Assembly: GCF_000026545.1 (NCBI RefSeq)
Contig: NC_011601.1
Direction: 5' to 3' (one strand)
DNA from: Escherichia coli O127:H6 str. E2348/69
Lineage (GTDB): Bacteria; Pseudomonadota; Gammaproteobacteria; Enterobacterales; Enterobacteriaceae
DNA length: 64,000 bases
A program made the position numbers and the translations under genes. Shown in pieces: positions 39,677 through 41,345 of this stretch; position 1 is the stretch's first letter; every line of letters starts with the position of its first letter. The notes beneath the pieces were generated by a model, which saw only the letters and a list, made by a program, of their open reading frames with translations, was not told where the DNA came from and made no database searches.

Positions 39677-40462
39677 TGCTCTCCCTGATTGCTTTAATGA
39701 AAAAGTCATATAAGTTGCCATGAACAATGTTTATTCATCCTAGCGATGACAAGATTCACCATTATTCTTTATGGGTATAACTGTCGGCGCAGAATCCTAC
39801 CTTTTATCATGTAACGATGCAAAATAATCCCGCTATAAATATGTGGGGATAAAGGCGGCTGGCGACAAAATAGCAACCTGATGAAATTATGACGGAAACA
39901 ACCACTATTGGTTTGATGATACCTGACTGCAGTCCTACTCTTGCGCCACTCGTTCGTCGCTCTGAACGCCAGTGGTTGCAGTGGATACTGGCGTGGTTGG
40001 CTCAATGAATAGTGAGGGGCTAGCACATGATGGGTTTCAGAGGTAATACGCCAAATACCAATATAATTGATGATTAAATGAGCCAATTGCCGACGTTACA
40101 TAAAAGGCTAAAAAATGTAAGAGGCATGTAGGGTGATAAACGCGCTATTGCCCAACAGGAGTTTCTGAAATTAGTCCTGTTCCATGGGCATTACAACTCT
40201 TAGGACATTACTTCAATATAATTAATGTGTATATCATTCTCGATATTAATTTATGAAGTGAATTTAATATATTCCGAATTCTTAATTTACATTACTAATG
40301 TATGGGGCATAACGTTAAGAAATCATAACGGGAAACGTTGATAACTTGCTTTGATTTCATTTTCTATGAAGATGATGCCATCAATGCTGCATAAAGTGGG
40401 TATATTGAACATCAAAGAGCGTTTGTTTTTATCTGAAAGATATTATTTCCAGGAGAAAGGAT

Positions 40463-40993
40463 ATGTCATTAAGGAGAATGACATCTGGTGAATTAACATT
40501 AGCCAGATCGATTTTTGAGAATACAATTGATTATAACAAGGTATGGATCCACAATGAAAAATATTTGCCCGGTCAAGGGGAAAGAACAGCGATGACCCCA
40601 AACGGGGAAATGTATTATCCTGATGCTGTTTATAGTTCAGATTTTTCATCGCAATCAATGCCTGGTGAGCGTGAAACAGTAGCAGGTGCTTCTCACTTGT
40701 TTATTCATGAAATGATGCATATTGGGCAATATCAGAAAGGGTATGCAGTTAAGTTGCGTGGTTTATTTTCCTGGGCGGCAAATTATCATTACGATCTTAA
40801 CTTACAGTCAATTGCTTCTTATTCCATGGAGCAACAAGCATCTATAGTAGCTGATTATTGGCTATTGATTAACTACGGACTGGTAGCTGATTTGGCAAAT
40901 GTTAACTATGTAGGTGATACAACTGAATCAGTGAACACGCTATCGGAAAAATACAAAAAGGTGCTTAATTTATTTCCTGCGGGCGTCATATGA
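40463..40993 (+). CDS. hypothetical HExxH zincin-like protein (DUF4157-like)
   Basis: 176-aa ORF, RBS aggagaaagg; HEMMH at residues 82-86 (nt 40706-40720) preceded by DFS; AT-rich context. Confidence 0.6.
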   Translation: MSLRRMTSGELTLARSIFENTIDYNKVWIHNEKYLPGQGERTAMTPNGEMYYPDAVYSSDFSSQSMPGERETVAGASHLFIHEMMHIGQYQKGYAVKLRGLFSWAANYHYDLNLQSIASYSMEQQASIVADYWLLINYGLVADLANVNYVGDTTESVNTLSEKYKKVLNLFPAGVI

Positions 40994-41345
40994 AGAGATT
41001 TTTTTATTGTTCTTTTTATCGGGATGCACTGTTGGTGATTACGTTCGCCCATTGTTGCCCGGTAATATATCTTTACAAGACGGACGGGTTTGTTCAAAAC
41101 CAGACGATGGGAGTATGATTTCAAATTATATTTTATATGAAGGTAAATATGGCAATGTAGTAAAACTGAAAAAATTGACTGGTCAGTTCGAACCCGTATG
41201 TATTGACATAAGTGAGCTATCTTCAGATGTTACTTATATCGGAAAATATATGCTCTCTTCCGGAAGTAAAAAAGAATACTATGGTTTTAGCATAATTAGA
41301 ACAGGGGTGCGTATTTTAAGACTTGATGATAATCATATTAAATAA
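40990..41345 (+). pseudogene. putative lipoprotein gene, frameshifted at a T7 tract (candidate immunity partner)
   Basis: ATG 40990 overlaps upstream stop (ATGA); T7 at 40999-41005; long ORF 41007..41345 with lipobox LSGC is in the +1 frame. Confidence 0.5.

Follow-up and report, generated by a model that had tools for sequence, protein, structure and literature searches.

In E. coli E2348/69 (EPEC O127:H6), a 1.9-kb AT-rich stretch separates ansP from a fragment of vgrG. Coordinates are those of the window, by which we mean the whole stretch of 64,000 nucleotides that was analysed. The following features were assigned:

38177-39676, minus strand: ansP, the upstream neighbour of the cassette.
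39880-40008, plus strand: yncG relic, which includes a 39-codon ORF and lies at the border of the K-12-type segment that was replaced.
40009-40462, plus strand: AT-rich cassette leader (GC 0.29-0.38), with an AGGAG Shine-Dalgarno sequence at 40451-40455.
40463-40993, plus strand: tpe, an intact ORF with an ATG start, predicted to encode a stand-alone gluzincin metallopeptidase effector of 176 aa (VgrG2b-Cter/Tpe family).
40706-40729, plus strand: HEMMH-I-G-Q codons of tpe; by alignment, zinc-binding H82, catalytic E83 and zinc-binding H86, followed by V87I and W88G.
40829-40831, plus strand: E123 codon of tpe, by alignment the third zinc ligand, in an MEQQ motif.
40990-41345, plus strand: tpi pseudogene, a putative immunity lipoprotein gene frameshifted after codon 5.
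40999-41005, plus strand: T7 homopolymer, the site of the -1 frameshift in tpi.
41346-41566, plus strand: AT-rich spacer between tpi and vgrG (29% GC).
41567-42505, plus strand: vgrG 5' fragment, ~313 codons of a 663-codon gene.
42508-43606, plus strand: rhs 3' fragment fused to that of vgrG; it covers the last part of the Rhs core and a C-terminal region with a frameshift.

The GC content is 0.38 both over 39728-40462 and in the 176-aa ORF, 0.33 in the gene downstream of it and 0.29 over 41346-41566, compared with 0.525 for ansP and 0.50 for the whole window. This bears out the AT-rich segment that an initial annotation of the DNA had described between ansP and the vgrG-rhs chimera. Positions 39700-41600 are matched at 100% in three assemblies of the O127:H6 E2348/69 lineage, T7 run included. 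At the same position K-12 carries yncG-yncH-rhsE, as the initial annotation had stated for yncG, and tblastn of Tpe and Tpi against the K-12 locus gave no trace of either cassette gene. Homology to K-12 running from ansP stops at 39871 (blastn). The 39-codon ORF had been placed at 39891-40010 and left unassigned within the island; it does exist, but at 39889-40008, and it aligns to residues 61-100 of K-12 YncG (60% identity, E = 3e-11, tblastn). By this alignment it is a yncG remnant at the island boundary and not a gene of the island. The sole match to the K-12 yncH-rhsE spacer is a 55-bp AT-rich stretch at 40244-40298 (77% identity, E = 3e-6). A relic of yncH was considered and rejected, because the match to YncH (6/6 residues, 'FLIYIT') is not significant (E = 0.36). 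A promoter scan of the cassette region gave 10 sites where 8.9 are expected, which is not above chance, and no promoter was assigned. A Rfam scan of 39600-41700 gave no match, and no terminator-like site was found in the spacer at 41346-41566.

The 176-aa ORF is not a chance ORF, because an indexed search retrieved 108 homologs across the Enterobacterales, a profile built from 36 homologs reached 3300 cluster representatives at E ≤ 1e-3, and dN/dS is 0.10-0.35 among E. coli alleles and clades. RefSeq labels the cassette genes 'hypothetical protein' or, misleadingly, 'type IV secretion protein Rhs', which is also the label of most of the homologs. Pfam, NCBIfam and PADLOC scans of the protein gave no significant match, and the identification therefore rests on sequence and fold searches of the PDB. 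The sole phmmer match of the single protein among PDB sequences was 6H56 (E = 2.9e-18, residues 4-138), which the family profile found at E = 1.3e-35. This structure is that of the effector domain, a metallopeptidase, at the C-terminus of VgrG2b from P. aeruginosa (Wood et al., 2019; PMC6899460). The AlphaFold2 model of the protein (pLDDT 91, pTM 0.89) likewise has 6H56 as its top and only significant Foldseek match in the PDB (E = 1.2e-9, probability 1.00, TM 0.63); M1 gluzincin aminopeptidases and selecase come next, with matches that are weak and not significant. The zincin-type fold that the initial annotation had proposed is thus supported by the predicted structure. The protein is without a signal peptide. 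A search of a phage collection returned three weak matches, annotated as VgrG-like or T6SS proteins.

The more specific suggestion of a DUF4157-type domain did not survive in its strict form. PF13699 (DUF4157, now eCIS_core) does not match the 176-aa protein even at E ≤ 10; among the 36 homologs it matches 17 at E ≤ 0.1 and none at E ≤ 0.001, with a best i-Evalue of 3.1e-3. Nor was any of the Tox-MPTase families, also put forward, matched in Pfam scans of the protein and the 36 homologs. A distant relationship to DUF4157 is plausible, because the HExxHxxQ signature is common to both and because Wood et al. (PMC6899460) term many orthologs DUF4157-classified.

The motifs noticed at the outset, DFS followed by HEMMHxxQ, are present as D60-F61-S62 and H82-E83-M84-M85-H86-I87-G88-Q89. 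H82, E83, H86 and E123 are invariant in the 36-sequence homolog alignment and align to H935, E936, H939 and E983 of VgrG2b, of which the first three are needed for periplasmic toxicity and E983 is the third zinc ligand (Wood et al., 2019; PMC6899460). Two point changes, V87I and W88G, separate the E2348/69 motif from that of genomes L003, L011 and L012. V87I is common to E2348/69 and its nearest relative, the pig isolate DCE7; W88G (codon 40724-40726, TGG to GGG) occurs in E2348/69 alone and is absent from DCE7. Position 88 is W in 205 of the 218 relatives with a full motif (94%) and G in one. Because the effector ORF is still intact in E2348/69, we go no further than to suggest that W88G may have cost the toxin its activity.

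The stop codon of tpe overlaps the ATG of the next gene at 40990-40993. This ATGA coupling had been recognized correctly, but in E2348/69 the frame of that ATG ends after 42 codons, and what is left of the lipoprotein-like ORF is shifted by -1 from it: this residual ORF begins at a TTG, spans 41007-41345 (112 aa) and carries the Cys codon of the putative lipobox at 41025-41027. DNA alignment and translations show T8 in the nearest intact allele against T7 in E2348/69, and relatives with T8 or an interrupted T run are open from the overlap ATG into a predicted lipoprotein of 118-120 aa. Since the T8 relatives read through and the T7 frame stops, the coupling is, on sequence comparison, ancestral and was broken in E2348/69 by the loss of one nucleotide in the T run. 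The small lipoprotein-like gene of the initial annotation is accordingly an intact member of the Tpi family in relatives but frameshifted in this strain. Intact E. coli alleles start at the ATGA overlap (MKRFFLLFFLSGC..., pattern MKRFFL[LF]FFLSGC); the N-terminus MKRFFLLFFL-S-G-C fits a lipobox by eye, and in E2348/69 the n-region and the putative lipobox lie in different frames. The intact 118-aa lipobox alleles fall in protein clusters of 184, 253, 81 and 195 members, and the dN/dS of tpi is 0.26-0.53 across E. coli clades.

The repaired tpi protein matches NF045617, 'putative T6SS immunity periplasmic lipoprotein', with 33 bits (E = 5e-8). For the proteins of E. coli and C. farmeri the scores are 30-35 bits (E 1e-7 to 1e-8), all below the cut-off of 43, and Pfam DUF7480 (PF24295) does not match them. 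In Enterobacter and Serratia, the genes next after the effector homologs carry DUF7480 and reach 102-106 bits with NF045617; hhalign aligned the E. coli lipoproteins to these DUF7480 partner proteins with a probability of 92.5% (E = 4.8e-7). C35 and C71 are invariant across 14 sequences, five of which are NF045617/DUF7480 proteins, which agrees with the report that PA0261 depends on DsbA (Wood et al., 2019; PMC6899460). A search of solved structures with the immunity protein gave no match. Its AF2 model is of moderate quality (pLDDT 74) with an all-beta fold, and its Foldseek matches in the AFDB were small lipoproteins of enterobacteria and Pseudomonas plus one DUF7480 protein, at weak E-values; this is consistent with the assignment, though not decisive. 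We read the downstream gene as a divergent Tpi, from the immunity-lipoprotein family NF045617/DUF7480 that goes with this effector family.

A query running from tpi to the start of vgrG matched in 226 of 5426 complete E. coli genomes (~4%), in all cases on the chromosome. At least 80% of the query was covered in 225 of the 226, so that vgrG directly follows the pair. The order in the intact E. coli island is tpe-tpi-vgrG (663 aa)-DcrB/Eag-PAAR-Rhs, an arrangement also found in C. farmeri, where it adjoins the T6SS tssM/tagF cluster. Elsewhere the pair comes after tssBC remnants (E. hormaechei), adjoins hcp (S. fonticola) or follows a prophage lysis cassette (a Kosakonia-like contig), whereas in S. 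rubidaea and E. rhapontici it occupies housekeeping contexts with no T6SS gene within 9-10 kb. The links of homologs to vgrG, PAAR and T6SS genes envisaged by the initial annotation were indeed found, but three of the eight sampled contexts, some of them housekeeping, have no T6SS gene nearby. Because of these contexts we describe the linkage as frequent rather than universal, which is usual for cargo effectors. An apparent second E. coli context, with a copy beside a sheath gene (H85/L014), was discarded as an assembly artefact of concatenated gene fragments. All five long relatives of the effector that were tested are VgrG fusions, and one relative of intermediate length is a PAAR fusion.

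In E2348/69 the island itself is incomplete. The vgrG fragment matches TIGR03361 with 220 bits over model positions 10-286 of 513 and is called a pseudogene by PGAP, and the rhs fragment matches Rhs_assc_core with 102 bits. Genome L003 has a full-length vgrG; in a blastn alignment, window position 42505 corresponds to L003 position 10956 and 42508 to 15859. Relative to L003, a 4902-bp deletion has fused vgrG codon ~313 to the 3' part of rhs, and the chaperone gene is gone. The ~0.94-kb vgrG fragment is found in four sequenced genomes, none of which has an intact tpi. Three distinct mutations account for this: T8 to T7 (E2348/69 and DCE7), loss of one nucleotide in an A run (382634_2f), and a shift of frame close to codon 70 in E200086, where ATG to ATA and M84T in tpe are found in addition. 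Where vgrG is annotated as full-length or nearly so, tpi is intact in five of six sequenced genomes, the exception being L003 with T7; in XJ6-3, vgrG is cut by an ISAs1 element and tpi is intact. Because of L003 and XJ6-3, the link between vgrG loss and tpi decay is a tendency in a few lineages and not a rule. The further independent tpi frameshifts in lineages with the ~0.94-kb fragment argue for relaxed selection, and relaxed selection with stepwise decay of the E2348/69 module is the simplest reading. According to one paper, E2348/69 has no T6SS (Miquel et al.).

Our favoured interpretation, which we consider highly probable, is that the cassette is a Tpe/Tpi-type T6SS effector-immunity pair heading the ansP-yddH vgrG-rhs satellite island, and that the E2348/69 copy is a decayed remnant of it. 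The initial annotation had suggested a T6SS- or Rhs-associated effector/immunity module from the position next to vgrG and rhs. The homology to 6H56, the fold, the vgrG linkage in 225 of 226 genomes, the VgrG and PAAR fusions and the literature all support this as to family and origin; for E2348/69 itself, a strain reported to be without a T6SS, the suggestion has to be amended to a decaying remnant.

By analogy with the characterised relatives, Tpe in its working form, lacking a signal peptide, would leave the cell on the spike formed by the VgrG of the adjoining downstream gene and reach the periplasm of an adjacent cell. At that site the HExxH...E zinc centre of Tpe (H82, E83, H86, E123) would cleave an envelope target, leading to septal blebbing and lysis, while the co-translated 118-aa lipoprotein would face the periplasm, bind the toxin and so protect the producer and its kin. 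The decay in E2348/69 may have begun with deletion of the 3' half of vgrG, the DcrB/Eag chaperone gene and most of rhs. Loss of one T from the T8 run of tpi would then have cut the signal-peptide start off the lipoprotein body, and the toxin would later have gained W88G beside the second zinc histidine. With no T6SS apparatus reported in the strain, the module would be a remnant and not a working weapon. Because Tpe would stay cytoplasmic without a signal peptide or a T6SS, the toxin ORF could persist harmlessly.

It is unlikely that the module is still functional in E2348/69, with an active toxin and a lipoprotein produced from an alternative start (CTG 40977 or TTG 41007) or by transcriptional or ribosomal slippage on the T7 run, in which case the lipoprotein could protect, as orphan immunity, against E. 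coli competitors armed with Tpe. Neither ORF (176 aa and 112 aa) is interrupted, slippage is known to occur on T runs, and orphan immunity genes are common in T6SS biology; moreover, PGAP gives a 122-aa product from an upstream alternative start in L003, where T7 occurs together with a full-length vgrG. However, the TTG start gives MFFLSGC, which is too short as a lipoprotein signal peptide, and the n-region from the CTG start, MRASYEE, is net negative and has no Shine-Dalgarno sequence. Two further independent tpi frameshifts in the ~0.94-kb vgrG fragment lineages point to relaxed selection, and W88G strikes a residue conserved in 94% of the family. The homopolymer frameshift is most likely decay and only remotely a reversible switch, in which the T8 run (codons 4-6, E2348/69-like clade) would toggle the immunity lipoprotein by slipped-strand changes between T8 and T7 or by transcriptional slippage on the U run. 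Such a switch would explain the recurrent T7, including that of L003 with its full-length vgrG, and the open downstream frame in E2348/69.

We attach hardly any credence to the idea that the pair is not a T6SS weapon at all, but either a peptidase and its inhibitor that form a self-contained pair in some other role, or cargo of DUF4157/eCIS type for an extracellular contractile injection system: the isolated S. rubidaea and E. rhapontici pairs, the Kosakonia-like pair beside a prophage lysis cassette and the weak PF13699 (eCIS_core) matches in 17 of 36 homologs would fit it, but none of these matches is significant, T6SS cargo effectors are often encoded as orphans, the E. coli pair lies directly upstream of vgrG in all but one of the matching genomes, and the domain is fused to VgrG and PAAR proteins. 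Homologs also occur in Sphingomonadaceae, which rarely have a T6SS (Wood et al., PMC6899460), but T6SS-dependent delivery has been demonstrated both for VgrG2b (PMC6899460) and for SARI_02727 (PMC12992299). In the family, such delivery and a periplasmic toxicity that requires the HExxH motif are known only for VgrG2b, Tpe1 and SARI_02727.

Read as a decayed Tpe/Tpi pair, the E2348/69 cassette leaves knowledge of the family itself unchanged. The family, with its stand-alone Enterobacteriaceae effectors and lipoprotein immunity, is known already, and the E. coli cassette is a further, uncharacterised and here degenerate member; a literature search found no paper on it. What remains new is the frameshift in the homopolymer, together with the decay series found in nature. 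The analysis provides a correct name for genes present in about 4% of complete E. coli genomes and puts a Tpe/Tpi cargo pair first in the well-known ansP-yddH (RhsE) vgrG-rhs island. It also illustrates, with a small natural case, how a T6SS satellite island may erode after loss of the spike gene, in which the immunity gene was struck independently three times and the neighbourhood of the toxin active site then mutated.

Wood et al. (2019; PMC6899460) reported that many Enterobacteriaceae have the domain as a putative cargo effector of its own, with a small ORF behind it, and that the enterobacterial immunity homologs are predicted lipoproteins, and they proposed the family name Tpe/Tpi after Tpe1/Tpi1 of A. 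baylyi. The E. coli pair shares with VgrG2b/PA0261 a homologous domain (E = 2.9e-18, ~29-36% identity), the gluzincin fold, the HExxH and downstream Glu ligands, the conserved HVWQ and MEQQ context, and a small downstream gene for a putative periplasm-facing immunity protein with conserved cysteines. It differs in that the E. coli domain is a free-standing 176-aa cargo and not the C-terminus of a VgrG, that the second His and the Glu are 37 residues apart instead of 44, and that the predicted immunity protein is a lipoprotein whereas PA0261 is soluble in the periplasm; the E2348/69 copy has, in addition, W88G and a frameshifted immunity gene. Tpe1/Tpi1 (ACIAD0053/ACIAD0054, Acinetobacter baylyi), compared by description, belongs to the same family according to Wood et al. 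and is likewise a cargo effector pair, but Tpi1 sits in the inner membrane through a transmembrane helix and the E. coli immunity protein would have a lipid anchor. With PF13699 (DUF4157/eCIS_core) E. coli Tpe has the HExxHxxQ signature in common, but not an HMM match. The proteins of NF045617/DUF7480 resemble E. coli Tpi in the position of the gene right after that of the effector, the putative lipobox, the two conserved cysteines and the profile-profile probability of 92.5%; the E. coli and C. farmeri proteins, however, stay at 30-35 bits against the cut-off of 43 and have no PF24295 match. Finally, SARI_02727/SARI_02726 of Salmonella arizonae (SPI-20), validated by competition and expression assays in 2026 (PMC12992299) and compared here by description, is also a stand-alone effector of ~180-190 aa with the gene for an outer-membrane lipoprotein immunity protein just downstream. 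Its reported ligands H95, E96 and residue 136 correspond to the E2348/69 numbering plus 13, with the same spacing. The Salmonella pair lies inside a complete T6SS cluster and is active, whereas the E. coli pair belongs to a vgrG-rhs satellite island and has probably decayed in E2348/69.

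The vgrG-rhs chimera arose by a deletion of 4902 bp, whose junction lies at window position 42505/42508 and corresponds to 10957-15858 in L003, an E. coli genome with a full-length vgrG. Lost in this event were the 3' half of vgrG, the gene for the DcrB/Eag chaperone and the greater part of rhs. The coordinates of the vgrG-rhs pseudogene are identical in strain 382634_2f. The region downstream comprises the following features.

Features downstream of the vgrG-rhs junction (window coordinates)
within 43052-44657: final part of the Rhs core, matching Rhs_assc_core at 102 bits, and a frameshifted C-terminal toxin region
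43599-43916: small ORF, unassigned
43928-44206: second small ORF, unassigned
44236-44436, minus strand: SymE-like toxin gene
44451-44657: additional YD-repeat fragment

At the left edge of the island, K-12-type sequence ends at 39871. The 39-codon ORF found here, which the initial annotation had left unassigned, is an internal relic of yncG: residues 61-100 of YncG align with window positions 39880-40008 (60% identity, E = 3e-11). Upstream of tpe, the stand-alone metallopeptidase effector gene, L003 (8622-8760) and many other genomes carry ∼ 140 bp that are absent from E2348/69 (40310-40320). In L003 and other carriers this segment is flanked by the short direct repeat GTTAAGA.

Strain E200086 (174-1056 of its locus) represents a third independent decay path. 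Its tpe begins with ATA rather than ATG and encodes the motif HETMH, and its tpi, the immunity-lipoprotein gene, carries a separate frameshift near codon 70. Pieces of tpe and tpi also occur in the last 10 kb of the 'complete' chromosome NZ_CP168949.1, within a row of 200-500-bp fragments of unrelated genes that is almost certainly an assembly artefact.

On a Kosakonia-like metagenome contig (8686-10958), a Tpe homologue and its DUF7480 partner sit immediately 3' of a prophage holin-lysozyme-Rz cassette, a setting which suggests that the pair is carried as prophage cargo; a CdiI_2/RNase-A-like pair lies nearby. Homologues were present in 61 records of the plasmid collection, the majority being large non-mobilizable replicons from Pantoea, Cronobacter and Rahnella. 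Among the 61 is a 72.6 kb plasmid of Escherichia marmotae, on which the partner is annotated as a 'putative T6SS immunity periplasmic lipoprotein'. In RefSeq and UniProt, most homologues are named 'type IV secretion protein Rhs', a misnomer, as Tpe homologues are neither related to type IV secretion nor Rhs proteins.
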